A stretch of DNA of 64,000 bases from an uncultured virus (IMG/VR IMGVR_UViG_3300033233_000003) (IMGVR_UViG_3300033233_000003), one strand, 5' to 3'; positions 1-41,157 are shown, numbered from the stretch's first letter. A program made the numbers and translations. The notes: generated by a model not told the origin, from the letters alone.

Positions 1-420
1 GCCGACAAGGCATACCTCTCTCGCGAGAATCTGGCGCTCGTCGCCGCCCTCGGTGGTACCGCCATGATCCCGTTCAAGGACGGTACTGGCGAGGGGACGG
101 TAGGCAACGGCGTAGTCGCCCCTCACGCGGAGCTGTGGCGCCAAGCGTTCCACTACTACCAGTACAACCGGGAGCAGTTCCTGCCTCGGTACCACCAGCG
201 GAGCAACGTCGAGACCGTTTTCCACATGGTCAAGTCCAAGATCGGGGCGTTCGTCCGCTCGACGAGCCCCACTGGCCAGATCAACGAAGTGCTAACAAAG
301 CTCCTGTGCCACAACATCATCGCCAACGTTCGGGCGAGCTTCGAGCTTGGCCTGAATCCCATACTCGGCTCCGGCGTCAGCCTCACCCCGGCCGACCTGC
401 TCGTCGGAGATGCCACGTGA
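1..420 (+). CDS. DDE transposase, C-terminal part (element A)
   Basis: Frame 1 reads ADKAYLSREN...YHQRSNVETVFHMVK (Y2R3E6K motif). Homologous to the four complete copies. Confidence 0.9.
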   Translation, partial: ADKAYLSRENLALVAALGGTAMIPFKDGTGEGTVGNGVVAPHAELWRQAFHYYQYNREQFLPRYHQRSNVETVFHMVKSKIGAFVRSTSPTGQINEVLTKLLCHNIIANVRASFELGLNPILGSGVSLTPADLLVGDAT

Positions 421-656
421 GCCGCGCTTCGACCGTCACAGAGATCGTGCTGACAGTGCTTCGCACAACACCAGGAGTCGTGCCTGGAGCCATGCCGTGG
501 CTCACGATGCGCGAAATCATCGATCGCGCAGCCGATCGCGGGGAGACGATCTCGCTGAACGCGGTGGCCTCCGCGCTCGCGAACGTCGAATCCGGCGCCC
601 TCTACGTAGACCGTTCGCGACGGCCGTTTCGATACCGCCTGCGGGTCTTGCAATGA
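417..656 (+). CDS. Small winged-HTH-like protein (first cargo gene of A)
   Basis: GTG overlaps the transposase TGA. LTMREIIDRAA...LNAVASALANVESGALYVDRSRRPFRY is near-identical to 28908-29210. Confidence 0.7.
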   Translation: MSRASTVTEIVLTVLRTTPGVVPGAMPWLTMREIIDRAADRGETISLNAVASALANVESGALYVDRSRRPFRYRLRVLQ

Positions 657-725
657 GGAGACGCATGCGAAAGGAATCAAGGCATGTTTCTCGGCCCATC
701 TTCCTTAGCCAAGTAACCTTGGCGA

Positions 726-911
726 ATGGCCTTTGTCCGAGTAACCTTGGCCAAGTGCAAATGCGACGAGTGCGGACACAAGTGGTTCTCGCGGTGGCCA
801 CGCAAGATCCCGATCGTGAACCGGCCTTCGAGGAAGCCACTCCCGAAGAAGTGCCCGCAGTGCAAGTCGGGATGGTGGAACGACCTCCCGCGTCAGGCGA
901 AGCGCTCTTGA
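726..911 (+). CDS. Small zinc-ribbon protein
   Basis: CKCDECGHKW...PKKCPQCKSGWWN. Confidence 0.55.
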   Translation: MAFVRVTLAKCKCDECGHKWFSRWPRKIPIVNRPSRKPLPKKCPQCKSGWWNDLPRQAKRS

Positions 912-952
912 AATCTTGTGGGCAAGTCGTGGACGAGCAGTGGTGGTTCAGT

Positions 953-1014
953 GGGCAACACTTGTGGTCCAAAGGGCAACACTTGTGGTCCAAGTGGCCA
1001 CAACTGTGGCCGAG
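953..1014. repeat. 21-bp tandem repeat upstream of the methyltransferase
   Basis: GGGCAACACTTGTGGTCCAA(A/G) twice plus a degenerate third unit. Confidence 0.75.
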
Positions 1015-1095
1015 AGGATTTCTCGCGAGCGCGAACGAAAGCGCTTTCGTTCGCGCACCGTCTTCGTCTACAGGTCGCTCGTCAATGAGGGCACG

Positions 1096-2094
1096 ATGCG
1101 GCGAGTGATCCCTCCGTCGAGCAAGTCCGTCACAGCGAACGGCATCCTGAAGGACACGCCTGCTAATCGCGCGCTAACTCCCCGCGTCGCATCGGATGCC
1201 CAATTCCGATCTTCAAAGTTGGTGCAAGGCGCGTTCTATGCCGACGGTCTCTCTCTGCTGTTCCACGGCGATGTTCGCTCGACGTTGGCGCGCATCGCGG
1301 CAAGCGGTTTGAAGGTCGACTGCATCATCACTTCGCCACCGTTCTACGGACAGCGGGACTACGGATTCGCGGAGCAGATCGGACTTGAAGATCATCCTCG
1401 TGAATACCTGAGCAACCTCATCGAGGTCTTTCAACTTTGTGGGGCGGTCCTGAGCGAGACGGGCAGCCTTTGGGTGAACATCGGCGACACGTATTGGAGC
1501 GGAAAAGGTGCGCATAAGAGCGGTGAAATGAAACAGGCGGCGCGAAGATTTGGACTCCGCCCACAGGATCGAGCAGGCGACGGTCTTTGGGCCAAGCCGA
1601 AACAACTTCTCTTGCTGCCACATCGTTTTGCGATCGAAATGCAGGACGCCGGATGGCTCGTTCGGAACGACAATGTGTGGGTGAAACCGTATCCTATCCC
1701 CGATCAGGTGCGTGATCGCTGTTCCATCTCACACGAGTACGTGTTTCACTTCACGAAGGCTCGTTGGTATTACTTCGATCATCGAGCCGTCGCGAGGAAG
1801 CTCGCGAATGGAACCATGCTGCCGCCTCTAGATACCTGGGTCGTACCACCGGCACGTGGCAACGGCAGTCACCGCGCTTCCTTTTCAGAGGAACTGGCCC
1901 GTGTTCCCATCCTCGCTACCACTCCTCCGCGAGGGATCGTGCTTGACCCGTTCAACGGAAGCGGAACGTCGATGGTATTCGCGCGACGACACGGCATTCG
2001 ATCCATCGGAATCGACATGAGCAAGGAATACTGCACGCAAGCCGTGGTCGCATTGAAAAATGCAGTACCGGCTACCTTCAAGATGCTGGGCTAG
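1096..2094 (+). CDS. N4-cytosine/N6-adenine DNA methyltransferase (beta-class motif order)
   Basis: Catalytic TSPPFY precedes SAM-binding VLDPFNGSGT; start codon uncertain. Confidence 0.9.
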   Translation: MRRVIPPSSKSVTANGILKDTPANRALTPRVASDAQFRSSKLVQGAFYADGLSLLFHGDVRSTLARIAASGLKVDCIITSPPFYGQRDYGFAEQIGLEDHPREYLSNLIEVFQLCGAVLSETGSLWVNIGDTYWSGKGAHKSGEMKQAARRFGLRPQDRAGDGLWAKPKQLLLLPHRFAIEMQDAGWLVRNDNVWVKPYPIPDQVRDRCSISHEYVFHFTKARWYYFDHRAVARKLANGTMLPPLDTWVVPPARGNGSHRASFSEELARVPILATTPPRGIVLDPFNGSGTSMVFARRHGIRSIGIDMSKEYCTQAVVALKNAVPATFKMLG

Positions 2095-3915
2095 ATGCCG
2101 AGCTACCTCGCGTCTCAAACCTTGCGCAACGCGATCGATCGATTGGGCGATTCGATCGCGCAGCCTCGCGTGGCTGACTACCTCGTCTTCAAGCGAGCCC
2201 TGATGAACACGCGTCGGACGGCGCCGAAAGCCGACGCCGTGGAGACCGGAATGGAGAACAAGCCTTTCCAGGAGGCGATCACCGAGTTTGCGGCATGCGC
2301 ACCCGGAAGTACCACTTGGACGGGATCGCCGTTCTTCTCGCCGTTCGGTTCAAAGCGAGATGGGCAACAAGGCTTCAAGAGTCCTAAGTATCCATCTAAC
2401 GGACCGTCTGACACGATCGGCGGATGGCAGTCGAGACCGAGCGAAGCCCCGCTCTTGATCGTGCCCAATTCGCGACCAAAGGCCTACAAGTTCGTCGCGC
2501 GAAGCGCATCAGAATTGACGGCTTTCCTTTTGAAAAAGGGGAAGGGTGAGCGGCCATCGCTACTGGATGCTGCGCGTTGGTGGTTCCGCTTTCAGGAGAT
2601 GCAATCTCGCTTCGGCCACGATCCAGACGCGCAGGAACTATGCGATGCGGTCGTGAAGGATCTCGACCTTACGAAAGCCGACCTGGTCGCCATCTTCGAG
2701 CCGATGCCGCCGAGCAGTGCTGGTGCATCAGCCGGTCCGTTTCAGAGCACGGTTGCCGATCCAGTTAGTTACCTGCCCGCTGCGAGCGCTCGCGTCGTCG
2801 CCGCCAGCAGCGCAACCAAGCAAGCAGTGACGCCATCGGCGGTACCATTAGCGCTCGAAGATCGCCTTGAGAGCATCGTCGATTTCGTCGAAGCACGTGG
2901 GTTCATCTTTAGTCCGTGGCAAATCGCGGCCTACGTGACGGCGGTGAGAACAAAGCCGTTCGTGATCCTTGCCGGCATCTCGGGTACAGGAAAAACGAAA
3001 CTGCCTCGGCTCGTTGCCGAAGCGACGAAGGCGGAGATAGAGATCATTCCGGTTCATCCAGACTGGACAGACGGTAGTGAGTTGATCGGCTACGAGCGCA
3101 TTACGGGCGACTTCGTGCCCGGAAGACTCCTCCGATTCGCGAAGCGAGCCCAGGAGGCGCCTGCTCAACAATTCTTCGCGCTGCTCGACGAGATGAACGT
3201 AGCGCGAGTCGAACACTATCTGGCCGACGTGCTCAGCCACATCGAAGAACGCGAGAAACATGCTGATGGCTTTCGCAGTCGACCGCTTGCACCACAGGCG
3301 ACCGGAGACTGGAACTCTGTGTGCTTGCCCTCGAATCTATGCATCGTTGGTTCCGTCAACATGGACGAAACGACGCACGGGTTTTCTCGTAAGGTGCTCG
3401 ATCGCAGCTTCGTAATCGAGTTTTCTGACGTAGACCTCGGGCGAGTCGGTGGCGATTCCATGGATACGGCGACGCCTGCGGAATGGAAGGCGAGCGACTG
3501 GACGCAACGCTGGCTGACGTTGGCCGAGCATCCAGAGAGGAAGAGCGACGTGGTGACGGATGTGATCGGAACCCTCGAAACCATCAACGACGCACTCAGC
3601 GTGGCGCAGTTACAGGTTGGCTATCGCGTGAGAGACGAGATCGCGCTCTTCCGATTGAACGCGCGTGACTGCGAGCCAGTATTCCGAGGCTTCGGCGCCA
3701 CGCCGATCGACCCTCTGGATCTCGCCGTCACGATGAAGATCCTACCTCGAATCCAAGGCGGTGGGACCGCCATTCAAGACGTACTCGATCGTCTAAGCGA
3801 ATGGGCAGACCCCAAGACGGATGGGACACCATCACGCGGGTTTCCCCTATCGAAGGATAGAATCGATCTGATGAGAAGCCGACTGCGTAGCGGTTTCACG
3901 TCGTACTGGCTGTAG
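2095..3915 (+). CDS. mcrB: McrB-like AAA+ GTPase
   Basis: Walker A GISGTGKT, Walker B LLDEMN, NMDETT signature, FSRKVLDR. Confidence 0.88.
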   Translation: MPSYLASQTLRNAIDRLGDSIAQPRVADYLVFKRALMNTRRTAPKADAVETGMENKPFQEAITEFAACAPGSTTWTGSPFFSPFGSKRDGQQGFKSPKYPSNGPSDTIGGWQSRPSEAPLLIVPNSRPKAYKFVARSASELTAFLLKKGKGERPSLLDAARWWFRFQEMQSRFGHDPDAQELCDAVVKDLDLTKADLVAIFEPMPPSSAGASAGPFQSTVADPVSYLPAASARVVAASSATKQAVTPSAVPLALEDRLESIVDFVEARGFIFSPWQIAAYVTAVRTKPFVILAGISGTGKTKLPRLVAEATKAEIEIIPVHPDWTDGSELIGYERITGDFVPGRLLRFAKRAQEAPAQQFFALLDEMNVARVEHYLADVLSHIEEREKHADGFRSRPLAPQATGDWNSVCLPSNLCIVGSVNMDETTHGFSRKVLDRSFVIEFSDVDLGRVGGDSMDTATPAEWKASDWTQRWLTLAEHPERKSDVVTDVIGTLETINDALSVAQLQVGYRVRDEIALFRLNARDCEPVFRGFGATPIDPLDLAVTMKILPRIQGGGTAIQDVLDRLSEWADPKTDGTPSRGFPLSKDRIDLMRSRLRSGFTSYWL

Positions 3916-3922
3916 GTGCGAC

Positions 3923-5746
3923 ATGACCGAGTCGCCGCTACTGTCCATTGAGAACAACTTCGTACGAGTCGAAGTCTATGGGCCGTTCGCGAGTCCTCGA
4001 AACGCTGAGGTCCTCGACATCAATCCGTCGGCTGTGGGCGCGCATTTCGAGGTTGAGCCGAACATCCATCCGACCATCGCTCGATACCGCGACGCGGTCG
4101 GACTCATGCGTCAGTGGACAAATGGAGAACATGGACCGCGTTTCCACGAGGGGACGCGGTATCGAATGGTTGCGGTTGCAAGCGTCGGCGCTGCCCCACG
4201 AATCATTCATCGGGATTCGGCCCTGACTCAGGACGCAAACACCATCTCTGGTCAGCCGATCACGATCTTGTCGCTCGACTTTCACGAGCAGATCGGCCTA
4301 AGCGCTTTCGAGATTCGCACCGATGTTGGCGTAGTGCGCTTCACGATCGAAGTTTTTCCGACCAAGCTCGACTACGCCACCGATTATCGTGAACTTCTGT
4401 ACGAGGTTGGCGCTGCGGCCAGAGGGCTCGCGTTCGAGTATCTGCGGAGTACCTATGTTCGCGCCGGAGCCAAGGCGGCCGAAGCGACCGTCGAAATCGA
4501 GTGGCTAACACTCCTGAGAAAACACATCGACGGATTGGAGGCCGCCGTCGCGTTCATTGGTCAACACCCACGGAGATCGCTGGTTCGCACCGTAGAACCA
4601 ATGAGAATAGAGCGCATTCGTCGAAGTAGTTCTAGTCTTCGCACGTCGGTCGCTCGTGGGAGCGGAAACGGTGAATGGATCGTGCTTCCCCGAGTCGGAA
4701 AGGTGCATTCGCGCATCCTGGGCACTCGTGCCAGTGAAACATTGGACACGCCGGAGCACCGCTGGCTGAAACGCAACCTGATGATGACGAGGGATCAACT
4801 CTCACGCATTGCCCAACAGCTCGATCGTGAAGTGGGCGGCTCTTGGTCTGGTCGAGAATCTTCGCGTCTCCGGTCCGAACGCGCGGAGGTCTACTCGTTT
4901 CGAGATCGCATCGAGCGGTTGCTGGAGACACCGCTGTTGCGATCGATACCCGGACTCACGTTGTCAGAATTCACCTCATTGACGCTGATGATGGCGCCAG
5001 GATACAGCGAAGCATACCAACACCTTCTAGCCCTTCGACTCGGATTGAACGTCGATGGCGGCGCTCTGGAACTCTCGACCAAGGAACTCGACGTACTCTA
5101 CGAGACGTGGTGCTTCATTCGGATCGCTCGAATGCTCGTCGAGCTTGCTCCAGGGAAGGTGACGCTCGACGATCTGATTGCGATCAGCGCGACGGGGATA
5201 CGTGTCCGTCTTCGGAGAGACCATCAGAGCAACATCGGACTTCAAGCAAACGGTCGTGAACTCGTCCTGTCGTACAACCGTCATTTCGATGGACTTACGG
5301 GAGCCCAGAGGCCGGACATCGTTCTCGAACTACGGCATATGGGCTGGCCGGAGATCATCGTGGTGTTCGATGCAAAGTATCGCGTCGATACGTCCGCGAC
5401 GTACCTCCGTGCGTTTACCGTACCAGGACCGCCCATCGATGCCGTCAACGCCCTTCATCGCTATCGGGACGCGATCGTCCTAGGCGCGAAAGATTCACCG
5501 CGTGGAAGGCCCGTCGTCAAAGGCGTGGCGCTGTTTCCGCTCGCAGCGAGCCTCGTGGTCCAGTTTGAGCAACACCAACCGCTTTTCCAGGCCCTCGCCG
5601 TTCTCGGAATCGGGGCACTACCGTTCTTGCCCGATTGCACGGCGTCGGTCGAACGATGGCTGCGCGCTTTGTTGGAGAGCGGCCCGGAGACACTGGCAAG
5701 CCCGGGACCAGAGTGGCTAGCCTTCACTCACCTACGATCTTTGTGA
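3923..5746 (+). CDS. McrC-like DUF2357/PD-(D/E)XK nuclease
   Basis: LDTPEHRWLK, LYETWCF, RPDIVL...FDAKYR, LHRYRDAI; directly after McrB. Confidence 0.85.
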   Translation: MTESPLLSIENNFVRVEVYGPFASPRNAEVLDINPSAVGAHFEVEPNIHPTIARYRDAVGLMRQWTNGEHGPRFHEGTRYRMVAVASVGAAPRIIHRDSALTQDANTISGQPITILSLDFHEQIGLSAFEIRTDVGVVRFTIEVFPTKLDYATDYRELLYEVGAAARGLAFEYLRSTYVRAGAKAAEATVEIEWLTLLRKHIDGLEAAVAFIGQHPRRSLVRTVEPMRIERIRRSSSSLRTSVARGSGNGEWIVLPRVGKVHSRILGTRASETLDTPEHRWLKRNLMMTRDQLSRIAQQLDREVGGSWSGRESSRLRSERAEVYSFRDRIERLLETPLLRSIPGLTLSEFTSLTLMMAPGYSEAYQHLLALRLGLNVDGGALELSTKELDVLYETWCFIRIARMLVELAPGKVTLDDLIAISATGIRVRLRRDHQSNIGLQANGRELVLSYNRHFDGLTGAQRPDIVLELRHMGWPEIIVVFDAKYRVDTSATYLRAFTVPGPPIDAVNALHRYRDAIVLGAKDSPRGRPVVKGVALFPLAASLVVQFEQHQPLFQALAVLGIGALPFLPDCTASVERWLRALLESGPETLASPGPEWLAFTHLRSL

Positions 5747-5919
5747 ACTTCCAGGAGCACCAGGAGGTCCCGGTGCCGTCCCTCGTCGAGAGGCATGACC
5801 GAGCCCGGTGAAGCGCTCTAAGACGCCTGCCTCAGAATTCGGGGCGAATGACGCGGTTGCCTCAGAATCTGTCAGGTGCCTCAGAATTGACCGCCTGAGG
5901 CCCATTTAGGATCAAAGCC

Positions 5920-6265
5920 CCTTGGATGGGATCTTGTTGATCGCCACACCCTTCATGATCCCTGGGCCACACCACTCGCCAAAGAAGATCATCGGTTTGC
6001 CGGCGGCAGCCGCCTTCCACTCCTCTTGATTCGACTCGACCCACGCGGCGAAGCCAGCGTTATCGCCGCCGGGACCGATGATTTGCGTACGGCTCTGCGC
6101 CAGCACCTTGTCGCCACGCACCTGGACGGCCGCGTTCGTACCGTGGAGCTTCACCTTCGCGCGGTACTCCACCGTCGTCGAACCACCGAGCAGTTCGGGA
6201 AACTTCTGCACGGACTTCCTGACGTTGTGGAAACCCTCGATCTCCGGCCAAGAGATGTGGCTCAC
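5920..6265 (-). pseudogene. 5' part of an Rnl2-type RNA ligase gene interrupted by element A
   Basis: Nucleotidyltransferase motif I KVKLHGTN, QSRT, DNAGFAAW, motif III FFGEWCGPGI. GTG overlaps the element B transposase stop. Confidence 0.8.
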
Positions 6266-7503
6266 GCGACCCTCCCGATCTCTTCCGCGAACTGCGGCTC
6301 GATTCCAAGCTCTAACACCGCGCTGTTGAGCACCACGACGTTGTGGCACAGCGCTTTCAGGTAGACCTCGTTAACCTGCGCGTCGTAGCTCTTGGAGCGT
6401 ACCGACGCGCCGAACTTCGACTTGATCATGTGGAACGTCGTCTCGACGTTCGAGCGCTTGTGGTAGTGCGCCATGAACTTGTCGTTGTTCCAGCGAAAGA
6501 AGTGGTAGAGCGACTGCCAGAGCTTGCTACCGCCCGCACCCTCGCCAGTGCCGATCTTGAAGGGGATGTACGGCATGCCGCCGAGCGCCACGACCTTCTC
6601 GACGTTCTCGTGGCTCAGGTACGCCTTGTCCGCCGAGACTTCCCCGATGCGGAAGCGCTTGGCCGTCGTGTCGAGCAGTCCAGGCATCTCAGGGCAATCC
6701 GGCGAGGCTTCGGGGCCGACGTAGATGGCGCTGACGATGTTCGTCTTCACGCCGCACGTCAGGTGCGCCTTGAGCCACGCGACCTCGCTGCGCTCCTTGC
6801 CCCACTTGTGGTCGAACCAGCGCTTGTAGGTCTTCGTCGCGAAGCCGGTGGAATCGACCGCGAAGTCCACCTCGACGCTCGCGAGCGGCGCCGCCGAGAC
6901 CTCGACGAGCGACTTGAGGAGCGGCGTGATCGCGCTCGACTCCATGAACCGGAACAGGCTGTTGTACGAAGGCGTCGAGTCAATCAGACCCTTCGCGCGG
7001 CTCGCGCGTACGTCGGTCTGTGCCCGCCGTCCGCTCTGCGTCGAGTAGACCTTCTGCGCCGCCGAAAACACCATGTCGGCGAGCGGGAGGCGCTTGCGTC
7101 CCATCGCCTGCGGGGGCTGCGCGATGCCTTTGCACAAGTCACGCAGCAGAAGCTCGAAGCGCTCCTTTTCTTGGACCTGCGCCGCGTTGTACTTCGGCCA
7201 GTCCTGGCTGTAGGTGACTTTCAACGTCTCCGTGACAACGGAGCCGTCGGGCATCTCGTGATGGCGCACAATCTCGACCGCGATGCAGTGCTTGCACGAC
7301 TGACCGCCGCGCGAGGCGTAGTCAGGGCACGAGCATTCCCAGGTTGGCATACCGTGGACGACGGAAGTCGTGACCACGTAGCTCCCCGAGTGGCTTTGGG
7401 ACGGCACGATCCAGGTCGGACCGCGCTTGATGATCCGCTTCCTTTTCGCGATCTCCATCGCCCGCTGCGTCCTCATGGCCTGCCCCTGCTCTGCGTTCAT
7501 CAT
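6262..7503 (-). CDS. SWIM zinc finger-DDE transposase (IS5/IS903-like), element B
   Basis: CSCPD...CKH; AVDSTGF, SADKAY, YHKRSNVETTFHMIK. Confidence 0.92.
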   Translation of the reverse strand: MMNAEQGQAMRTQRAMEIAKRKRIIKRGPTWIVPSQSHSGSYVVTTSVVHGMPTWECSCPDYASRGGQSCKHCIAVEIVRHHEMPDGSVVTETLKVTYSQDWPKYNAAQVQEKERFELLLRDLCKGIAQPPQAMGRKRLPLADMVFSAAQKVYSTQSGRRAQTDVRASRAKGLIDSTPSYNSLFRFMESSAITPLLKSLVEVSAAPLASVEVDFAVDSTGFATKTYKRWFDHKWGKERSEVAWLKAHLTCGVKTNIVSAIYVGPEASPDCPEMPGLLDTTAKRFRIGEVSADKAYLSHENVEKVVALGGMPYIPFKIGTGEGAGGSKLWQSLYHFFRWNNDKFMAHYHKRSNVETTFHMIKSKFGASVRSKSYDAQVNEVYLKALCHNVVVLNSAVLELGIEPQFAEEIGRVA

Positions 7504-7510
7504 CGATTGA

Positions 7511-7590
7511 CCTCGTAGGCCCATTGTAGCACCCTTCAAAGGGATGTCAACGGTAGGCTTGACGTGGGTCGTTCGTAGGCCCATAGTACC
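7511..7590. promoter_or_regulatory. Back-to-back sigma70-like promoters with repeated operator
   Basis: Minus strand TTGACA-16-TACAAT and plus strand TTGACG-17-CATAGT. TCGTAGGCCCAT occurs twice, overlapping both -10 boxes. Confidence 0.7.
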
Positions 7591-7595
7591 AGGGC

Positions 7596-7793
7596 ATGAC
7601 GGACGCGCAACGCAGAAAAAAGCGGACGAAGATTCAACAGGAACGTAAAGACGACTCGATCCGCGTCCGAGTGACGGCGGACCAGAAGCGGCAGTTCGCG
7701 GACGCAGCGCAGGCAGCCGGCCTAGACGTTTCGGTCTGGCTCCGCATGCTGGGCGTCCGTGAGGCGAAGGGCTCTGTGGGAGGAACCGAGTGA
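7596..7793 (+). CDS. Ribbon-helix-helix regulator (element B)
   Basis: SIRVRVTADQKRQFADAAQAAGLDVSVWLR; conserved in B-E. Confidence 0.85.
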   Translation: MTDAQRRKKRTKIQQERKDDSIRVRVTADQKRQFADAAQAAGLDVSVWLRMLGVREAKGSVGGTE

Positions 7794-7867
7794 ATATCTC
7801 GGCCTGCTCGCGATTCTCTTTTTCTCCGTGGCTCCTCGCCCACGCTGAGCGTGGGTGCGAGGACGCG

Positions 7868-8440
7868 CTAGTGCGATGCCCCTCCCCGCGAACCGTCGTT
7901 CGCTGCGAAGGGGAGCACCACGCCGGAGCCGAGCCCCGTGATCGACGCGGTGAGTCGATACTTGTAGTTCTTGTGGAAGCCCTCGCGGGCAATCTCGCCC
8001 CGCTTGCGCATGTGATGCAGCGCGCCATGCACGCTCCCGGCCTCCACGTCGGGGCGCAGGATCTTGACGCCCTCGATGACGGCTCGTGTCGAGAGTCCAT
8101 CGTGCTCGGTCGCGAGCACGGCGCGGATCGCTCCGGGGATGGTGGCGCTGTCCGCGTGCTCGACGGCCTCGTGGATGCGCGTGCAGGGCGCGGAGCGCTC
8201 GACGGGGGCGCTGGCGAGTCCGGGCGGCACGGGAGGCGCGGAGACGCGCTCTCTGGGCTGGCGGACGCTCGTGGGCTGGGAGTCTCCCGAGAGGGTCGCG
8301 AGAACGCGATCGATCGCGGATTGAATATCCTCGGCGTGCCTTGCGAGGTGCTTCTCTCGCTCGGTCGGGCCGAGCTGCTTGAGGAGTTGGGCGTAGATCG
8401 CGCGAATGCGCTCGACGGACTTGGCGGTGTCTGTGGCCAT
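7868..8440 (-). CDS. Conserved accessory protein with C-terminal winged HTH (element B)
   Basis: TIPGAIRAVLATE...VHGALHHMRKRGEIAREGFHKNYKY; conserved in B-E. Confidence 0.8.
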   Translation of the reverse strand: MATDTAKSVERIRAIYAQLLKQLGPTEREKHLARHAEDIQSAIDRVLATLSGDSQPTSVRQPRERVSAPPVPPGLASAPVERSAPCTRIHEAVEHADSATIPGAIRAVLATEHDGLSTRAVIEGVKILRPDVEAGSVHGALHHMRKRGEIAREGFHKNYKYRLTASITGLGSGVVLPFAANDGSRGGASH

Positions 8441-8767
8441 TGCCGTGAGACGTTTGTGGGAGCGGAGTAGCTCACTTTCGTGAGAGAAAAAGCAATGGTG
8501 ACATTTGAGGCAAGCGCGAGATACGAGGCAGACTTATGAGGCAACATGGTCATTTGGGGCAAAGCCATCGCTGCCTGTGGAGGCTTCCCGATGATTGAAG
8601 TGGAGTCCGAGAACGAGGAAGTCTCGAAGGACGTGCAGCAGGCGGAGGACGGCATGGGCAAGCGCGAGCGCGAGCGCGACGTCTACATGGTCAACGTCGG
8701 TCGGCCTTGTCTGTAAAGTCGACTTTCTGGGAGACATTCTGGTCGGCCTTCCTTCCTGCCCAAGAAG

Positions 8768-9040
8768 TCATCGCGCCACCTGCGCCAGTTGGAGCAGTTG
8801 AGAGGGGCGCATCCTGAATGCAAACGCAATCTTCGAGAGCCGACTGATCGTCATCGACACGTCGCCGCGTTCGGTGGGCGCCAACATGCCAATCTTCACT
8901 CCTGTTTCGCGTTCGAGATCACGAAGTAGCCAGCCACGCCTTTTTCGCAAAGTACGTACGGTGGCTGCCAAGCTCCTCGCAAAAGTCTGATACTCAGCCT
9001 CGATACTGACGAGAGTCTTGGGGTCGCCGCTGCCGGTCAT
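8768..9040 (-). CDS. XRE-family HTH regulator (cargo of C)
   Basis: VRTLRKRRGWLLRDLERETGV...ERGDVSMTISRLSKIAFAF. Confidence 0.75.
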   Translation of the reverse strand: MTGSGDPKTLVSIEAEYQTFARSLAATVRTLRKRRGWLLRDLERETGVKIGMLAPTERGDVSMTISRLSKIAFAFRMRPSQLLQLAQVAR

Positions 9041-9210
9041 TGCGGCGGCTCCATCGGCATGAAGATCGACGGCGTACGGAGCCTTAGACGCTGGTTACGA
9101 CGCTCGATCAGGAACAGGAAGACGAGGAGCACCGCCAGCGCCAGGAGCGCTACGACGGCCACGAGGCGGTCGCGGAGAGCGCTTCGGAGGGCGGAGCGGT
9201 ACATGGTCAT
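9037..9210 (-). CDS. Small membrane protein (cargo of C)
   Basis: LVAVVALLALAVLLVFLFLIERRN; homologue at 39619-39843. Confidence 0.7.
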   Translation of the reverse strand: MTMYRSALRSALRDRLVAVVALLALAVLLVFLFLIERRNQRLRLRTPSIFMPMEPPQ

Positions 9211-10175: not shown

Positions 10176-10176
10176 T

Positions 10177-10383
10177 TTATACTCTCCTCTTCGGCTTCAC
10201 GTGCCCGTCGAGCACGTAGCGCGCGGCGACGAGCCGGCCCTTCTTGGCGTTGGCGTGGTTGCCATACGGACACGGCCCCTCAACCATTGTCTTTCGCGCG
10301 TCCACGCACGCGATCTGACCGCACGTCGAGCAGATTCCCACCCAGAGCTTGAGGGGAACGCGCATGGTGAAGACGGCCATCAC
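10177..10383 (-). CDS. Small Cys-rich protein (first cargo gene of C)
   Basis: Start overlaps the transposase stop; CSTC motif. Confidence 0.55.
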   Translation of the reverse strand: MMAVFTMRVPLKLWVGICSTCGQIACVDARKTMVEGPCPYGNHANAKKGRLVAARYVLDGHVKPKRRV

Positions 10384-11630: not shown

Positions 11631-11718
11631 GTTACCTGGATAGACTGGTGTGGCTACACCAGTATTCACCCGATTCGGCCTTGACATGCAGACTATGAGG
11701 TCTACACTAGGCCTAGAC

Positions 11719-11925: not shown

Positions 11926-12027
11926 CCCGTGCCGGGCGTGGCTCCGCTCGCCGACCCCGACGCGGGGGCGGTCTCTGTGCGTTCGGCTCGCCCGCCCGCG
12001 TTGCCGCAGAAGGGCGCGTGCGCTTCC

Positions 12028-27271: not shown

Positions 27272-27352
27272 CGTGACATAACGGTATGGCCCCAGCATGG
27301 CCCTGTCAAGGCCCCCCTTGACACGTGGCCCCAACGTGGCCATGCTGTGGCC

Positions 27353-31636: not shown

Positions 31637-32241
31637 AGAATCGAAGCAGGATCGATCGTGTACAGACCGTCGCGTTTCAGCCAATGAGCCATCGCCCACG
31701 CTTCTTGGAAACGAATGTCAGCCATCGTCAAGCCGTAGTCGCGGCACAGTTTCTTGAATTCTTGATAGACGGTCGGTCTCTTGACGAAGAGGATCCACAT
31801 GAGAGCTGCCTCAGTGGTGAGAAATGTTTTGCCGCCATGTTTATGCGAAGGCCGACGGATCACGTTGCAGCGTCGACATCGAAGGGTCATGTTTTCAAGG
31901 CGATCGGCTTCGTCGCCGTGATCTTCTCTCGTCTCGATATGGTCGGCCTGCAATTCGAGCCGACTCCCACAGTCGGCGCAGCGTCCAGTCTGATTGAAGT
32001 GCCACTGAATGACAGCTCGCATGATTTGTCTGGGTGGAAAATGCTTCTGGAACGTTGCCTTCGACGCGATCGACGTGCCAACCTGAGAAGGATTTAGATG
32101 GCCGAGCATCAATGCGGCCACCTGTTGGTACGTCACCAACCCGGTGTCCGTGAACCATTGAATTAGGCGTCTCCAGTTGTCTTCGGTCCACTGCGAGTCC
32201 TTCTCGGGGAAATCAGCGAACGGCGAGCCATGCTTGGCCAT
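31633..32241 (-). CDS. HNH endonuclease (putative cognate restriction enzyme)
   Basis: CADCG...LQADH...LENMTLRCRRCN; convergent with the MTase. Confidence 0.8.
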   Translation of the reverse strand: MAKHGSPFADFPEKDSQWTEDNWRRLIQWFTDTGLVTYQQVAALMLGHLNPSQVGTSIASKATFQKHFPPRQIMRAVIQWHFNQTGRCADCGSRLELQADHIETREDHGDEADRLENMTLRCRRCNVIRRPSHKHGGKTFLTTEAALMWILFVKRPTVYQEFKKLCRDYGLTMADIRFQEAWAMAHWLKRDGLYTIDPASIL

Positions 32242-32966
32242 GTCGAGCGATCGTCAGTTGCTCTGTCGAGGCGGGCCAACTTTGGGGTCCGGGTGCCCCT
32301 CCTCGTCGAGAGCCGACCGGAGGCGTGATGGGCAGCGCGCTGGTCGTGATGACGGTACCCGAGGAGTGTCTTCCCGTGTCCGCGCTCCGCATCGCGGACA
32401 AGGACGGCGAGCCAGTTCCTGTCCCCGGGTTGAGCGGGTGGCCCTGGAAGCCGCGGGAAGAGCTTGAGGCGACGCTCTCCGCCCACCCGGACGCCTTCTG
32501 GGTCCTGCGCGTGCCGCGGAGCGCCGTCTGGGACCCTCCGGGCGAGTCCGGCGTTCTCGCCACGAACAAGGTGGCGAGGGGTCCATGGCGGGCGGGTCCG
32601 CCATTCGCTCCTGCACTTCCTGAACGACAAGCTCGGCGAACTCGACGGAATGGTACGGACGGGATGGTGGATCTTGCAGCGGGCACGTGTGCGGCTCGCG
32701 ACGTTCGAGGAGCAGTCGTGACCGATGCGCATTTCTCAGAATTTTCCACCCGCCGAAGTGCCGTCTCTAATTCCAACGGGTCGGCTCAGAATTTCGTCTC
32801 AGAATGCAATTCTGCGCCAAAGCCCGACCTCGTCAAAGACAGCCACGACGCAGCGAAGAAGATGCAGGCGGCAGAATCCGATGCTTTGCCCTCGCTGCGT
32901 CGTGCGGAGCGAATTCAGTGACTACGTCCACGACGCGTCTTCGCGCGTCGATGAGGAGCCCTCGCG

Positions 32967-36024: not shown

Positions 36025-36496
36025 CCATCGAGTCTTGCGAAGAGTGCCGAGGCGTCTTCCACCTGCTGAAGGGCGCCACGGCCACGACGAGGAAGAGTGT
36101 CTGATGGCACACGTCAAGATCACCATCATCTACGACGACGAACAGGTCGGCGGTGAAGGCGCGCCGTGGAGTGCTCGCGCGAGCATGAACGAGGCAGGCA
36201 CGAATGTCTTCCTGAACATCGAGCGTTGGGGCGACGATCTTGTGTCTGAAGCTGAGGGCGGACCCTTGTATGGGTGGACGCCGCCAAGCTCACGGCGGGA
36301 GATCGACTTCGCACTGGCCTCCACGAAAGGCGCTCATCATCAGGGAATCACACGGGGCCAACTGGACCTGGCTTTGCACCTAAACCCCCTCCTGCACCTA
36401 AAGTCGACATCCTGAAACCTCGCTGCACCTAAAGTCGCTCGTTCGATTTCCTCTCATCGAAGTGAGTCCCTCGACCTCGCGCGCCGTCAGAGATAC

Positions 36497-37033
36497 ATGA
36501 CGAAGCAGATCGATCGCTCCCGCTCCATCCTTGTGAATCTTCTGCGACAGGTAGCGCCCGACGCGCGCGAAGTGCACTACACACGCCTCGCCGACGCCTA
36601 CCAGGAGGTCATCGATGCCGTGCTGGCGGCCATCGACGCCGCCCCGCCCGTCTCCATGCGCCTGCCCAAGGCTCGCGTCTCCAAGCCGGCTGAGACCGAG
36701 GCGCACGTGCATTCGGCCACCTGCGAGCACATGCACGACGCCGTGGCGGGCGCGGAGGCGGCCACCGTGCCGGGCGCCATCCGGTGCGTACTCGCGAACG
36801 AGCGCGATGGTCTCAGTCCCCGTGCCGTCATCGCGGGCGTCATCCTTCTTCGCCCCGGCACCTCGGACGCGCTGGTCCACGGCTCGCTCCACCAGATGAA
36901 GAAGCGTGGCGAGGTCGTGCGCATCGGCGCGAACGGCAAGATCGGCTACGCGCTGAATCCCACCTTCGACAAGCTCACGCTCGTGGACGCGCAAAGCGCG
37001 CCCAACGGCGCTGCGGGAGGTGAGGCGCACTGA
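36497..37033 (+). CDS. Winged-HTH accessory protein (element E)
   Basis: TVPGAIRCVLANE...VHGSLHQMKKRGEVVR. Confidence 0.8.
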   Translation: MTKQIDRSRSILVNLLRQVAPDAREVHYTRLADAYQEVIDAVLAAIDAAPPVSMRLPKARVSKPAETEAHVHSATCEHMHDAVAGAEAATVPGAIRCVLANERDGLSPRAVIAGVILLRPGTSDALVHGSLHQMKKRGEVVRIGANGKIGYALNPTFDKLTLVDAQSAPNGAAGGEAH

Positions 37034-37134
37034 ACGTGGCATCGCAGCCACGCGTGCGTGTCGCGCCTCCCACGTAGGAGGCGAAAAGATGAATCGAGAC
37101 CCGGCGCCGCGACCGGGAGGGTGGAGCCACGCCT

Positions 37135-37332
37135 TCACTTGGCCCCTCCCTCCCGGCCATCCTTCGCCTCACGGATCGCGATCGAGCGCATCCACGTGGA
37201 GACGTTCATCCCACGTGCCTCGGCTGCGTCCGTGAACTGCTGCTTCATCTCCTCGGTCACGAGCACCTTGATTAGCGACTCCTTGCGGTCGTTCGCCGCC
37301 TTGAGACGCCTCTTGCGCTTGCCCACTTCCAT
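37135..37332 (-). CDS. Ribbon-helix-helix regulator (element E)
   Basis: LIKVLVTEEMKQQFTDAAEARGMNVSTWMR. Confidence 0.85.
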   Translation of the reverse strand: MEVGKRKRRLKAANDRKESLIKVLVTEEMKQQFTDAAEARGMNVSTWMRSIAIREAKDGREGGAK

Positions 37333-37419
37333 CTGACGTGCGACGATATGGCCCTATTCAGGCCCCTGTCAATCGACTTGACGCCTGAATAAAACAGGGC
37401 CATACTCAGTCCATATACC

Positions 37420-38712
37420 ATGATGCAGGTCGAGCAGGTCCAGCAGGCGGCGCGGGCGCAGCGCGCGGTCGCCATCGCGAAGCACGAGACGAAGCGGATC
37501 ACTCGGCGCGGCCACCTCTGGGTCGTGCCCTCCGCAACCCACAGCGGGACCTACGTCGTCGAGAACGACGGTGTGAAGTCCTCCTGCACCTGCCCCGACC
37601 ACGAGCTACGGCGCCAGCCGTGCAAGCACGTGATCGCGGTCGAGATCGTCCGCACGCATTCGATGCCCGACGGCACCATCATCATCGATACCCAGCGCAT
37701 CACGTACTCCCAGGACTGGTCCGCCTACAATGCGGCGCAGGGCGAGGAGAAGCGGCGCGTGCCGATCCTGCTCAAGGATCTCTGCAAGGGGATCGTCGAG
37801 CCCGTGCAGGCCCTCGGGCGACCGCGCCTGCCGCTCAAGGAAGCGATCCTCGCGGCGGCGATGAAGGTCTACGTGGGGCTCTCCGGGCGGCGCTCCGAGA
37901 CGGACATGGACGACTTGGTCACGAAGGGCATCCTCGGCTCGCGCAAGCGCCGCGACCCGCAGCACACCGCGCCGCACTTCAACACCATCCTGCGCACGAT
38001 CGAGCGGCCGGACATCACGCCGCTGCTCCGCGAACTGGTCGAAGCCAGCGCAGCGCCGCTGAACGCGATCGAGACGGACTTCGCGACCGATTCGAGCGGC
38101 TTCGCTAGTGGCATGTACTCGGAGTGGTTCGACCACAAGTATGGCAAGGTCGAGGCGAAGCGCCGCCGTGAGTGGGTGAAGGTCCACCTGACCTGCGGGG
38201 TGCGCACGCACATCATCACGGCCGTGACGGTCAAAGAAGAATGGAGCGCGGACTCACCCGAGATGCCGGGGTTGCTCGACGCGACGGCCAAGCGCTTCAC
38301 GGCACGTGAGCACAGCGGAGACAAGGCTTACAACGGCCACGAAAACGTGGCGAAGATCATCTCGCTCGGCGCGACTCCGCTACTGCCCTTCAAGGACGGC
38401 ACGGGCGAGGGCGTGGACGCGCCGCTGATCTACAAGCAGGCGTTCCACTACTTCCACTGGCACAAGCCCGACTTCCTGCGCCGGTACCACAAGCGATCGA
38501 ACGTCGAGACGGTCTTCTCGATGATCAAGCGGAAGTACGGGCCGGACCTCTTCGCCAAGTCGTTCTCCGGGATGGTCAATGAGGTCTACCTCAAGGCCCT
38601 GCTCCACAACGCCGGCTGCCTCGTGATGGCGATCCGCGAGCTTGGGATCGACGCGCAGTTCTCGGAGATGTTCGACGCGGCCGAGATGATCGGCATGGGG
38701 AGGGTGGCGTGA
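37420..38712 (+). CDS. SWIM zinc finger-DDE transposase, element E
   Basis: CTCPD...CKH; ATDSSGF, SGDKAY, YHKRSNVETVFSMIK. Confidence 0.92.
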   Translation: MMQVEQVQQAARAQRAVAIAKHETKRITRRGHLWVVPSATHSGTYVVENDGVKSSCTCPDHELRRQPCKHVIAVEIVRTHSMPDGTIIIDTQRITYSQDWSAYNAAQGEEKRRVPILLKDLCKGIVEPVQALGRPRLPLKEAILAAAMKVYVGLSGRRSETDMDDLVTKGILGSRKRRDPQHTAPHFNTILRTIERPDITPLLRELVEASAAPLNAIETDFATDSSGFASGMYSEWFDHKYGKVEAKRRREWVKVHLTCGVRTHIITAVTVKEEWSADSPEMPGLLDATAKRFTAREHSGDKAYNGHENVAKIISLGATPLLPFKDGTGEGVDAPLIYKQAFHYFHWHKPDFLRRYHKRSNVETVFSMIKRKYGPDLFAKSFSGMVNEVYLKALLHNAGCLVMAIRELGIDAQFSEMFDAAEMIGMGRVA

Positions 38713-39597
38713 AACTCACGAAAGCCCAGCGCTCGATGCTCACGAAAGCCCAGCGCTCGATGCTCACGGATGTTGCGCGGGATGGCTATGTCCATGGGGC
38801 ACGACATGCCCAAGGAACGGGTCGGTTGCTCGCGATGGGCTTGATCGAACCACGATCGGTGGGCGGCCTCTATCGAGTGACGGACGCCGGATACCAAGCG
38901 TTAGAGTCGACCGATGTCTGATGCCGATATTCATTTTCGCAGAGAACGCGTGACTGTCGTTGCCGGCTTCAACTGGCTCACGACCGCGCCGGATCCACGA
39001 TCGCGAGCAATCGGATACGACGCAGGCCAGCGTGGTTGGCGGAGGCACGCCGTCCGTTCGGCCCCTAGCGAAAAGTTTGGTGACATCAGAACACGCGCCG
39101 CAGCATGTGGACTTGTTCCTGCCCACGGATGGAGCGTCGACCTTTTCATCGAGACTGAGTGCCAACGCTGCCTCGTGGCGTTGAAACGGGCCGAGATGAT
39201 CGGCATGGGGAGGGTGGCGTGATGGAATACGCTCGCAACGGGCGCAACACGGCTCCCGATCTCGTGATGGATCTCTCGAAGTCGGATCAAGAGATTCACC
39301 GTGAACTGCGCGCCAAATGGCCGCTAGTCATCGACCTCTGGTGGGAACTGGAGATGGATGAGCGGTCCGGGTGGGTCTACAATCGTAACCGTTGCCTTGT
39401 TCGACTCGTTCATGTGGTTGCGTGAGGAGCGATTCATGGAAGTCTCCGAACGAACCCTAATTGCTGGCTACCTGCATCGTCGTGTCGATGCTGTCCAGCA
39501 GGTCATCGACACAGCGCCAGTGTTCAGCAAACGATACGATTTGGCGGTCTCCGAATTGGAGGAACTCGAAGAGTTGCTTGGGTTGGACGATGGGTGA
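38709..39597 (+). other. Small cargo ORFs of element E (38709-38921, 38914-39222, 39219-39425 and a further short ORF)
   Basis: Overlapping starts and stops; 24-bp tandem duplication in the first ORF. Confidence 0.5.
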
Positions 39598-39618
39598 GAA
39601 GAAGGAGCCGAAGCCGAA

Positions 39619-39843
39619 GTGATGTACGCCTGCGCCAAGCACAACCAATCTGGATACGACGGCAAGTGCCCCGCGTGCGCCACCGAGCAGGCGGCCCTCG
39701 CGAAGCGTTCACAGGCCCTCGTGGCCGTCGTGGCGCTTCTCGCGCTTGCGGTGTTGCTTGTCTTCCTCGTCCTGATCGAGCGCAGGAACGCCCGCCTAGG
39801 CGTCCGCACGCCGTCGATCTTCATGCCGATGGACTCACCATGA
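39619..39843 (+). CDS. Small membrane protein (cargo of E)
   Basis: Homologue of 9037-9210. Confidence 0.7.
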   Translation: MMYACAKHNQSGYDGKCPACATEQAALAKRSQALVAVVALLALAVLLVFLVLIERRNARLGVRTPSIFMPMDSP

Positions 39844-40628
39844 TGAGCGTAGGCCGCAACGATCCGTGCCCGTGCGGGAGCGGTAAGAAGTACAAGCGGT
39901 GCTGCCTCGCAAACCAAGGCTCGACCGCCGTCACTCACATCACCTCACCGACGCTTGACGCGGAGGCGTTCGTCGCCGAAGTGCGACAGAAGCGCGGCGA
40001 GCGGATCTTCCGGCGAGCGCGCGGCTGGGAGATCCAGATGTCGTTCGGGGCGCCTGAGTTTCAGAAGATGTTCGGCTGCGACGTGTTCTACCTCACGGCG
40101 ATGCTCTACCCGGCTAGGCGTCCCTCGCGAAGTGACGACTGGCGAGCCCTCGGTGAGATGCTCGGCCCTTTGGGAGCCCCGCGCGAGCCTGTGCTGCCTT
40201 GGGAGGACTTCGCGCCGATGGCGCCTCACCACTTCGCCTGGAGCACCGAGACGGGCGAGCGGGTGGAGATTCCTGAGTTCGCGAAGGACGCGATTCGGTT
40301 GCTCCAGCGGCAACGGTTCGGCGATCCAGCGGCGTGGCAGCACGGGAACGGCCCCTGCGCGCACTGCGGGGAACCCGCCGTCGCCCTGGTTGGCTGCCGG
40401 TTCTGCGACAAGACGTACGCGCACTGCGCGAGCCACGCTTCGCAGGTCAAGACGACGATGAGCGGCCACGGCCTACGTGTGCATCCTGACAAGTTGCCGC
40501 GAAAGGTGATCGATGCACTACTCCGCGACGAGGGCGGATCGCTGTCTGAGATCCGGGCTGAGGCTGCGAAAGACCCGGAGATGTGGAAGAAGCTCACCGA
40601 TTTTATTGCCGCTCGGAGTTCGCGATGA
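39840..40628 (+). CDS. SEC-C motif protein (cargo of E)
   Basis: VGRNDPCPCGSGKKYKRCC. Confidence 0.8.
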   Translation: MMSVGRNDPCPCGSGKKYKRCCLANQGSTAVTHITSPTLDAEAFVAEVRQKRGERIFRRARGWEIQMSFGAPEFQKMFGCDVFYLTAMLYPARRPSRSDDWRALGEMLGPLGAPREPVLPWEDFAPMAPHHFAWSTETGERVEIPEFAKDAIRLLQRQRFGDPAAWQHGNGPCAHCGEPAVALVGCRFCDKTYAHCASHASQVKTTMSGHGLRVHPDKLPRKVIDALLRDEGGSLSEIRAEAAKDPEMWKKLTDFIAARSSR

Positions 40629-41157
40629 AGCCGAATGCCTGGGGATTGTTGATCGTCCACATCATCCGCGTTCGCGAGATGCTGCGAGACCTCGTCTTGC
40701 TGACATTCCGACGCCGACTCTACGTCCGGTGCGGGAACTTCCTGCGCACGTTCCGCCCGTGTCGTAGGGACGCGACCATGTCGTTCGATGGCGAGCCTCC
40801 GCTGTACTGCGCCGCCTGCGATCCGAGCGGCGTCGATGTGGGGCGTTGGGAGCGGGCTCCGTCGTGGGCTTCAAATGGCCGGAAAATGGGTGCGCTGAAG
40901 CCAGCGACTTCTGGTGCAGGAACGAGGGCTGCACCTAATGTCGACGGGAAATGAGGCTTTAGGTGCAAAGCCACTGGACCTCCTCGCCATGGAGGGGGCC
41001 ATCATGGCATTGCGTCCGTCGGCCTGCCCACACGTGGAGACGACCCCGATCCCTTGGTTGAACCCCGAGGGCATCATCGGGGTGATGCTCTGCTGCGCGA
41101 AGTGCGGCGCAGAGGTGAAGTTCGTGGCGCTCTCCGAAGATGGTGGGCCGTGACGCC

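Follow-up and report, generated by a model that had tools for sequence, protein, structure and literature searches.

The first 41 kb of a 64-kb stretch of DNA from an uncultured virus (IMG/VR IMGVR_UViG_3300033233_000003), which was analyzed at its full length and is called the window below, hold five diverged copies (A to E) of a transposon that carries genes besides its transposase. The question raised by this locus is to which kind of element these copies belong, whether they move and whether such elements have been described. The window has a guanine plus cytosine (GC) content of ~63%, and its proteins were placed on a single contig of 188,059 bp in the protein database. In our reading, to which a probability of about 0.8 is given, the five elements represent autonomous unit transposons of the DDE type that descend from an IS903-type insertion sequence (IS), with a proposed regulation of their own, and each of them arrived separately. 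They are real, mobile and apparently undescribed in print. Their positions are the following:

1..5919 (+): element A, with the 3′ end of the transposase gene, cargo and the right (R) end; its left part lies outside the window
5920..8566 (-): element B, with its left (L) end, GGCTTTG, at 8566; its right part lies outside the window and it is interrupted by A
8703..12704 (-): element C, complete, 4002 bp, duplication ACGTCGGTC
26236..32824 (+): element D, complete, 6589 bp, duplication CGACCTCGT
36370..40972 (+): element E, complete, 4603 bp, duplication ACTGGACCT

Direct reading of the ends and flanks bore out what an earlier sequence-only annotation (the original prediction) had claimed for C, D and E, namely tips of the form GGC(T/C)TTG...CAAAGCC and exact 9-bp target-site duplications. 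C begins with GGCCTTG at 8703 and its CAAAGCC runs up to 12704, with ACGTCGGTC on both flanks (8694-8702 and 12705-12713). D extends from GGCTTTG at 26236 to the CAAAGCC that ends at 32824, between two copies of CGACCTCGT, and E from GGCTTTG at 36370 to the CAAAGCC that ends at 40972, between two copies of ACTGGACCT. These three exact duplications are far beyond chance: the chance of a 9-bp match is ~4^-9 per end pair, and fewer than 200 +/- end pairs are possible. For the heptamer GGCYTTG itself, 31 occurrences were counted in the window where 12.7 are expected, and none of 100 shuffles reached 31. The statement that A and B show one end each was equally confirmed, the right end of A being found at 5913-5919 (CAAAGCC) and the L end of B at 8566 on the minus strand. 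So was the gene order claimed for B to E, that is, L end, winged-helix gene, divergent ribbon-helix-helix (RHH) gene, transposase gene and cargo; with hidden Markov models (HMMs) made from the four copies, one winged-helix gene and one RHH gene were detected in each of B, C, D and E.

Elements A and B are nested. Directly downstream of the transposase gene of B, an RNA-ligase-like open reading frame (ORF; 5912-6349, minus strand) covers only positions 2-79 of a model of 171 positions and stops where the tip of A lies. Since this ORF is broken off there, A has inserted in a cargo gene of B, and therefore the far end of B must lie outside the window. C, D and E had also been said each to split a backbone ORF that rejoins in frame. 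After in silico removal of the element and one duplication, junction-spanning ORFs of 111, 163 and 174 amino acids (aa) were obtained, in agreement with this claim. However, the check is a weak one, as 4-5 ORFs cross each repaired junction in DNA of 63% GC, and the ORF split by E had no homologue besides itself in the protein homology search that served as an empty-site test. No clear target consensus was found among 29 insertion sites of complete elements, where the strongest signal is A then C at duplicated positions 1-2 (13 of the 29 each). Palindromes with a stem of at least 7 were absent within ~80 bp of the insertion sites of C, D and E, and the nearest ones are located 89 and 106 bp off.

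The transposase genes of the five elements are:

1-420 (+): 3′ part of the transposase gene of A, with a DDE_Tnp_1 match
6262..7503 (-): transposase of B, 413 aa, SWIM + DDE
10380..11630 (-): transposase of C, 416 aa, SWIM + DDE
27353..28639 (+): transposase of D, 428 aa, SWIM + DDE
37420..38712 (+): transposase of E, 430 aa, SWIM + DDE

In the Pfam scan, all four full copies show a SWIM zinc finger (PF04434) followed by DDE_Tnp_1 (PF01609, with E values of 1e-13 to 1e-22). Pairwise identity among the copies of the window is 48-70%, and the 139-aa C-terminal piece of A shows 100% identity with P0006 (residues 289-427), which is a 427-aa SWIM+DDE protein of the same 188-kb contig. The best NCBIfam model for all copies is NF033579, with 93-116 bits in the window and 121-126 bits in two relatives (loci L015 and L001), as compared with 377-387 bits for ISSpu20 and ISVa2. 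The full model (positions 2-288) aligns to residues ~104-413 of the SWIM-bearing relatives, and thus the transposase consists of a complete IS903-type body preceded by an N-terminal extension of ~100 residues. As this model is the best one and is fully covered, yet scores under its cut-off, the family is composed of distant relatives of the IS903-type proteins and not of equivalogs. In BLASTP, the transposase of D is 27% identical to that of ISSpu20 over 194 aa (E 1e-15).

In an alignment of 30 sequences, the zinc ligands C57, C59, C69 and H71 (CxC...CxH), the DDE triad D217, D292 and E362, and residues R358, N360 and K369 are invariant, and Y355 is nearly so; the motif Y-(2)-R-(3)-E-(6)-K is present. 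Every invariant catalytic and zinc-binding residue is retained in the four full transposases of the window. The Pfam and NCBIfam scans of the ORFs of the elements gave no TnsA/TnsB/TnsC or MuB-like domains. Similarly, no MULE domain was found in the Pfam scan, which gave DDE_Tnp_1 only, and the NCBIfam matches were to IS5, IS1182, IS4 and ISNCY models. A sequence search of the PDB with the transposase produced no match at E <= 1. ORFs of 750-825 aa that extend over the transposases were rejected as genes. They are read-through in high-GC DNA, their N-terminal halves being of low complexity and antisense or out of frame to real small genes, and the real transposase genes encode 413-430 aa.

Each tip consists of GGCYTTG followed by an 11-14-bp site, which resembles the single inverted repeat of IS903-type elements, but about three copies of the candidate binding site are present at each end. 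Direct copies of the site are placed at +5, +23 and +54 in the L ends of B and E. The R ends of C and E have sites in direct-inverted-direct order, and those of A and D several inverted sites, three inverted copies of TGCCTCAGAAT in the case of A. The repeated sites differ by element, that is, TGCCTCAGAAT in A, TGCCTCAAATG in B, TGCCCAAGAAGT in C, CGTCTC[CA][TA]AAT in D and TGCACCTAAAGT in E. Because the binding sites differ, the five elements probably do not cross-mobilise. Multi-site ends of the same type were found in elements from other phyla, and most of the other loci for which no complete element was called show at least one recognisable multi-site end.

The spacing of the L-end sites varies within the family. 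The distance from site 2 to site 3 is 31 bp in B and E, as opposed to ~19 bp in members from other phyla (L001, L008, L021 and L025, with sites at ~+6, +24 and +43). The extra stretch between these sites is identical between E and locus L037 (L ends of the window: B 8437-8566, C 12575-12704 and E 36370-36500), and it might hold a site for clade-specific proteins.

Evidence of movement was obtained from read depth. Contigs of the only public run in which the stretch was found, which is probably the source of the contig of the window, were aligned to positions 25000-42000, a region that includes D and E. The depth within D is 10.5-12.9, in comparison with ~24 in the backbone on both sides. One contig, with a depth of 10.3, joins 26226 to 32825 and so skips 6598 bases (6589 + 9), with 9 letters that fit both sides. 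The depth inside D and that of the bridging contig add up to the depth of the backbone. D is, in conclusion, an insertion polymorphism whose sample also contains the precise empty site, and the empty-site allele that had been proposed as a check was found at the exact site of D (one contig, from the probable source run). E is at backbone depth and shows no bridging joint. A related element is known from another site: metagenome contig L037 carries an E-like element with the duplication ACCTTCTGT, whose core from L end to transposase is 80.7% identical to that of E and whose R end is 87% identical, while its cargo is different. A contig of depth 2 joins 26569, in the winged-helix gene of D, to 37733, in the transposase gene of E, and other low-depth joints carry foreign letters. 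These joints may represent related elements elsewhere in the sample or recombinants.

The family extends far beyond the window. Among 8000 candidates scored, 4919 relatives of the transposase were found at E <= 0.001, and nearly all of the 120 listed have both Pfam domains. Cluster representatives number 4811 at 1e-3, 2607 at 1e-10 and 832 at 1e-30. Three sets of loci were collected, 33 from species genomes, 46 from IMG/VR (several of these on multi-copy contigs) and 3 from metagenomes. The genome loci belong to Dehalococcoidia, Blastocatellia and other Acidobacteriota, Methylomirabilota, Planctomycetota, Actinomycetota, Vulcanimicrobiota and Hyphomicrobium, and the family is also recorded in Chloroflexota and in many IMG/VR contigs. 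When a complete element was defined by matching tips and an exact 9-bp duplication, 29 such elements were recognised, all with GGC tips, which range from 3132 to 6688 bp with a median of 4066 bp. An element with the transposase only would need ~1.4 kb, and none of the 29 is near that size; with lengths of 3.1-6.7 kb, all of them therefore carry extra genes. The elements hold from 3 to 8 or more genes.

A quick maximum-likelihood tree of the transposases (IQ-TREE quick mode, 77 rows, ISSpu20 and ISVa2 as outgroup) was built after exact duplicates, copies with <380 bits and copies covering <330 model positions had been left out. The five copies of the window and L037 are grouped in one clade of 15 rows, supported by a Shimodaira-Hasegawa-like approximate likelihood-ratio test (SH-aLRT) value of 99, beside elements from Dehalococcoidia (95). 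The nearest neighbors on other contigs are P0013 for B (86%), L037 for E (84%) and P0005 for D (75%), and A, represented by P0006, is placed with P0009. That each copy of the window has its closest relative on a different contig indicates that the five are separate arrivals and not local copies. The original prediction had asked for such a tree and for a collection of neighborhoods, and had named as a refutation homologous transposases that generally lack both the regulator pair and cargo. The relatives do carry cargo, but they are generally without the winged-helix/RHH pair.

INPHARED phages gave one weak IS4-type match only, and PLSDB plasmids gave ordinary IS5/IS903-type transposases of 23-28% identity. 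Two PLSDB matches that seemed to reach the SWIM region were discarded, as one is an ordinary 310-aa IS5 transposase (H2) and the other an unannotated stretch (H3). An exact look-up of ten relatives showed that the source name is only "transposase" in the NCBI annotation, and a literature search, to which ISfinder and TnCentral did not belong, found no description of SWIM-bearing IS5-family transposons. The claim of an undescribed non-composite family thus stands as regards the non-composite and autonomous structure, the IS903-type tips, the SWIM-bearing DDE transposase, the cargo bay and the lack of a published description in that search, but not as regards the regulator pair, which is not family-wide.

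Several loci show more than one copy. In L006 (Blastocatellia, 3053-10813), a second element of 1.4 kb with the same tips follows the first, GAAGCTCTG is located before, between and after them, and three transposase copies lie within 16 kb. In L003 (Blastocatellia, ~1670-1690), the CAAAGCC tip of another element touches the duplication. Among contigs labelled as viral, several bear two or three diverged copies: L049, L051 and L079 are on one IMG/VR contig of 122,834 bp, and two others have two copies each. The family may tend to accumulate on large replicons of an extrachromosomal or phage-like kind.

The small genes at the L end of B to E, together with a Zn-ribbon ORF of A, are:

717..911 (+): Zn-ribbon ORF of A, downstream of the transposase gene (717-908 matched at E 2.3e-8 by an HMM from eight Zn-ribbon ORFs of other loci)
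7596..7793 (+): RHH gene of B, divergent from the transposase gene with a 92-bp gap (HMM)
7868..8440 (-): winged-helix gene of B (alignment and HMM)
11719..11925 (+): RHH gene of C (HMM)
12028..12567 (-): winged-helix gene of C, the same as P0286 (alignment and HMM)
26413..27000 (+): winged-helix gene of D, 195 aa (AlphaFold model)
27077..27271 (-): RHH gene of D (Pfam, NikA-like, E 4.3e-7)
36497..37033 (+): winged-helix gene of E (alignment and HMM)
37135..37332 (-): RHH gene of E, with an 87-bp gap to the transposase gene (HMM)

In B to E, the winged-helix gene is read inward from the L end and encodes 178-195 aa, and the RHH gene, divergent from that of the transposase, encodes 64-68 aa. 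The RHH protein of D matches the NikA-like PF21983 with 30.4 bits (cut-off 27 bits) and the other copies align with it. By this profile match, the small divergent gene encodes a putative RHH protein, for which DNA binding is predicted, and the proteins resemble those of NikA, MobA, TraJ and TacA type. The winged-helix protein had no match in Pfam, NCBIfam or PHROG. The AlphaFold model of the D copy, based on an alignment of 18 sequences, has a mean predicted local distance difference test score (pLDDT) of 74.8 and consists of an N-terminal two-helix hairpin, a disordered linker and a C-terminal domain of three helices and a beta-hairpin, whose elements (H110-119, H127-137, H143-155, E159-162 and E169-172) are at pLDDT >90. 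Its top Foldseek neighbors are the winged helices of Fur, PerR, MarR and TubR, with weak scores (E ~0.01, template modelling score 0.26-0.32 by query), and the structure rows of the Protein Atlas agree. The earlier label of a winged helix-turn-helix protein is thus a reasonable one, although such a likeness is no proof. A predicted complex of the transposase with the winged-helix protein scored 0.00 against a mark of 0.32, which counts neither for nor against binding.

The pair is confined to one small clade and does not define the family. HMM searches found winged-helix homologues in 0 of the 33 genome loci and 0 of the 46 viral loci, and in 5.8 billion proteins there are 17 at E <= 0.001, two of them from the contig of the window itself. 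All three metagenome loci with a homologue also contain the transposase gene and the divergent RHH gene, in the same order. Elsewhere, the position immediately upstream of and divergent from the transposase gene is very often occupied by a conserved Zn-ribbon gene of ~50 aa (consensus W.Y.C.RC.HEW.PR...P..CP.CKSPYWN.PR). Of the 76 transposase copies outside the window, 26 are accompanied in this slot by the Zn-ribbon gene and 9 by an RHH gene (2 have a winged-helix gene in addition), whereas in 41 nothing was detected by these HMMs. In L001, the slot is occupied by a helix-turn-helix (HTH) gene. The claim of two dedicated regulators as a trait of the family therefore holds for the clade only, as none of 79 other genome and viral loci has the winged-helix gene and 9 of 76 copies have the RHH gene, and the role of regulator is itself a proposal.

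The start codons of the RHH and transposase genes in B to E are 81-92 bp apart. In B and E, this gap contains predicted back-to-back sigma-70-like promoters (2 found as against 0.1 expected per 1.2-kb scan), which in B are TTGACA-16-TACAAT on the minus strand and TTGACG-17-CATAGT on the plus strand; in C there is one, TTGACA-16-TACACT. The gap of E is nearly palindromic. About 30 bp before the start of the winged-helix gene, a palindrome CTC[AT]C-N3-7-GTGAG is found in B (8471-8486), C (~12597-12611) and E (36451-36466, CTCTC-N-GTGAG). Within 42 kb it occurs in these three L ends only, where ~0.9 occurrences are expected from mononucleotide shuffles. The backbone has an NikA-like RHH gene of its own (13194-13448, plus strand), ~490 bp past the end of C, which is matched by the HMM of the RHH genes of the elements at E 5e-7. 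It may be what is left of an old element, or the backbone may have a regulator of this type.

The nearest known elements are ISSpu20 and ISVa2, from Klebsiella and Vibrio plasmids, of 1059 and 1054 bp with one protein of 306-307 aa, which we take to be members of the IS903 group. The ISSpu20 copy has the inverted repeat GGCTTTGTTTCCTAAATCG and a 9-bp duplication, and the ISVa2 copy has GGCTTTGTTGCGTAATTC. The likeness of the present family to the IS903-type elements covers the NF033579 body from end to end, the DDE and YREK residues, the 9-bp duplication and the tips, which are clearly homologous (GGCTTTG followed by an ...AAnTCG-type site). On the contrary, IS903-type elements are of ~1.05 kb, with one gene and one inverted repeat of 18-19 bp, whereas the present family is of 3.1-6.7 kb, shows about three copies of the site at each end and has, besides the additional SWIM module of ~100 aa at the N-terminus, cargo and a small regulator-like gene in divergent orientation; at the protein level it is only 27% identical to ISSpu20, and the score is under the NCBIfam cut-off. 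The comparison with IS903 drawn in the original prediction consequently agrees with the tips, the 9 bp and the single gene of the ISSpu20 copy, provided that the presumed group assignment of ISSpu20 and ISVa2 is right.

In their structure, the elements correspond to transporter ISs (tIS) or unit transposons, a concept of ISfinder and TnCentral. A single transposase and passenger genes are found inside one pair of terminal repeats with no flanking IS pair, the duplication flanks the whole unit, and the cargo differs between close relatives. We know of no tIS with a SWIM-bearing IS903-type transposase, and none was found in the literature search.

Two other groups share some of these features. 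The ends are asymmetric and contain the binding site at least three times, in which they are similar to those of Tn7 and Mu, as these are generally understood. However, the family has no TnsA/B/C/D or MuB-like genes, its only transposase is a small DDE_Tnp_1 protein, and the duplication is of 9 and not 5 bp. Defence genes are described as a frequent cargo of multi-site transposons in an excerpt of PMC8649781. With the eukaryotic Mutator/MULE transposases, the family has in common the SWIM finger on a DDE transposase and the 9-bp duplication (excerpt of PMC6446971, and otherwise general knowledge), but its transposase is of the DDE_Tnp_1 (IS4/IS5) type and not of the MULE/IS256 type, and its SWIM finger is N-terminal. 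The excerpt of PMC2853133 contains no IS5, IS903 or 9-bp case.

The cargo genes identified in the window are:

916-2094 (+): A, DNA methyltransferase (N6/N4) (Pfam; PADLOC MTase_II, 258 bits)
2095-3915 (+): A, AAA_5 ATPase (Pfam)
3923-5746 (+): A, DUF2357 with PD-(D/E)XK nuclease (Pfam)
8768-9040 (-): C, XRE-type HTH (cargo of C, 8768..10175)
9040-9300 (-): C, small ORF common to E and L037
9207-10175 (-): C, 322-aa protein with weak zf-CCHC and HTH_38 matches
28848-29207: D, small ORF 93% identical to one in A (cargo of D, 28640..32735)
29162-31636: D, 824-aa protein with a methyltransferase domain
31633-32241 (-): D, HNH endonuclease
32163-32732 (-): D, ORF
38713..40900 (+): E, cargo of several small ORFs, with a SEC-C-motif ORF at 39594-40628

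PADLOC assigned PDC-M26A (145 bits) to the cargo of A (916..5746), with a weak match to PDC-M26B (E 6.6e-4). This cargo would then consist of a type II-like methyltransferase and a PDC-M26-like pair of AAA_5 and DUF2357-PD-(D/E)XK proteins. The cargo of E is unrelated to that of L037 except for one small ORF (39598-39840). In L001, the cargo comprises a HindVP restriction endonuclease, a C5 methyltransferase and Vsr, and other relatives contain DUF3800, NYN and TPR proteins and XRE-type regulators. From these contents we infer that a free cargo bay extends from the transposase gene to the R end, occupied by restriction-modification or defence-like genes in A and D.

Two small ORFs deserve separate mention. 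The first is located just downstream of the transposase gene in A (423-653) and D (28848-29207) and is 93% identical over 71 aa, while the transposases are only ~71% identical. This suggests a recent exchange between co-resident elements or a strong constraint. The second, of ~75-85 aa and with no family match, is found in C (9040-9300, minus strand), E (39598-39840, plus strand) and L037 (9569-9787), with 59-77% identity over partial overlaps. In E, it is read in a frame different from that of the SEC-C-motif ORF 39594-40628, whose start it overlaps. This ORF of C, E and L037 may be a further semi-core gene of the clade.

A mode of action can be proposed for the unit transposons. The SWIM module would read the repeated sites of the ends, and several transposase protomers would assemble on each end. 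Movement would be by cut-and-paste with 9-bp staggered cuts at the target, as with IS903. The RHH and transposase genes would be transcribed from back-to-back promoters in the 81-92-bp gap; repression of both by the RHH protein is probable and would keep the level of transposase low. The winged-helix protein would be a second, clade-specific DNA-binding factor, which probably acts at the L end near the palindrome.

Several points weigh against this reading. The curated cut-off of NF033579, 140 bits, is missed by the family (93-126 bits). The evidence for the empty-site joint is a single Logan contig, whose shorter side has 21 + 9 letters, and short sides can mislead; moreover, the run that contains it is the probable source of the assembly and hence not independent of it. 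Cut-and-paste is carried over from IS903 and would apply by analogy. In 41 of the 76 other copies, no small gene is detectable by HMM, so that none of these genes is shown to be required, and the promoter scan found none in the RHH-transposase gap of D and none ahead of any winged-helix gene. As for the tree, it was computed in quick mode, and accessory genes were labelled per locus, the second copies in L006 and L024 only loosely.

With respect to the regulator pair, the winged-helix and RHH genes might be passengers at the L end, either transcription factors of phage or plasmid type acting on the host replicon or an antitoxin-like pair. The rarity of both genes across the family would be expected of passengers, as would the resemblance of the RHH protein to NikA, MobA, TraJ and TacA-type proteins and the presence of a similar RHH gene in the backbone (13194-13448). 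But position, order and orientation are the same in every member of the clade that could be compared, seven in all (B, C, D, E, L036, L037 and L038), while the cargo differs, a small DNA-binding gene fills the divergent slot in 35 of 76 other copies, and the RHH gene shares its 81-92-bp promoter region with the transposase gene. Passenger status is considered unlikely. It is a doubtful, speculative idea that the five elements are mutually orthogonal transposase/end systems, in which the winged-helix protein is a factor of end discrimination or immunity and not a simple repressor. If this were true, diverged relatives could pile up, and even nest, on one replicon, and together with a swappable SWIM module they would be natural, reprogrammable single-protein systems of cut-and-paste with a cargo capacity of several kb.

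Two further explanations would deprive the locus of present movement or of its arrangement. That the copies are dead relics with old duplications is suggested by their divergence (48-70%), by the full backbone depth of E and by the tips of C, which differ after the first 7 bases, and the polymorphism data cover D and E only; yet the four full transposases keep all their catalytic and zinc residues, the three duplications are perfect, and D is present on about half of the molecules next to a precise empty site, which makes this explanation very improbable. The clustering and nesting might also be an artefact in which repeats of related replicons were collapsed into a chimeric contig, since the window comes from a metagenome assembly, the depth inside E has bumps (30-36 as against 24-25) and the depth-2 joint connects D and E (26569 to 37733). 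This would hardly be expected of copies with 48-70% protein identity and mostly <70% DNA identity, which are too diverged to collapse, of complete elements that are each flanked by matching duplications, and of a backbone whose depth is even (~24) beside D and E. An artefact is accordingly regarded as barely credible.

The elements belong to a very abundant transposase family that has no family name in the NCBI annotation. They indicate a route from a minimal IS of 1 kb to a cargo carrier, through an N-terminal zinc-finger module, triplicated end sites, a variable regulator slot (Zn-ribbon, RHH or HTH) and a free bay, which often holds restriction-modification or other defence genes. The window presents five diverged lineages within 41 kb of one uncultured replicon, one of them nested and one caught as an insertion polymorphism, and it adds the winged-helix and RHH clade and evidence at the population level to the family. 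No new principle of transposition is involved.

In the PHROG and Pfam scans of the 64-kb window, no capsid, portal, terminase or other structural genes were seen, and the PHROG matches are limited to DHFR, a dNMP phosphatase-like protein, a methyltransferase, HNH and phrog_1818. A search of viral contigs with the backbone protein 57942-59402 found no relative. Phage-type matches of the backbone are located at 43646-44386, 50033-51139, 19587-20306 and 55506-56165 (HAD_SAK_2 / phrog_1818, dNMP phosphatase-like phrog_318, DHFR and HNH). Between C and D, the backbone also carries an unrelated transposase of the IS1595 family (17307-18344, plus strand), with the domains Zn_ribbon_IS1595 and DDE_Tnp_IS1595.

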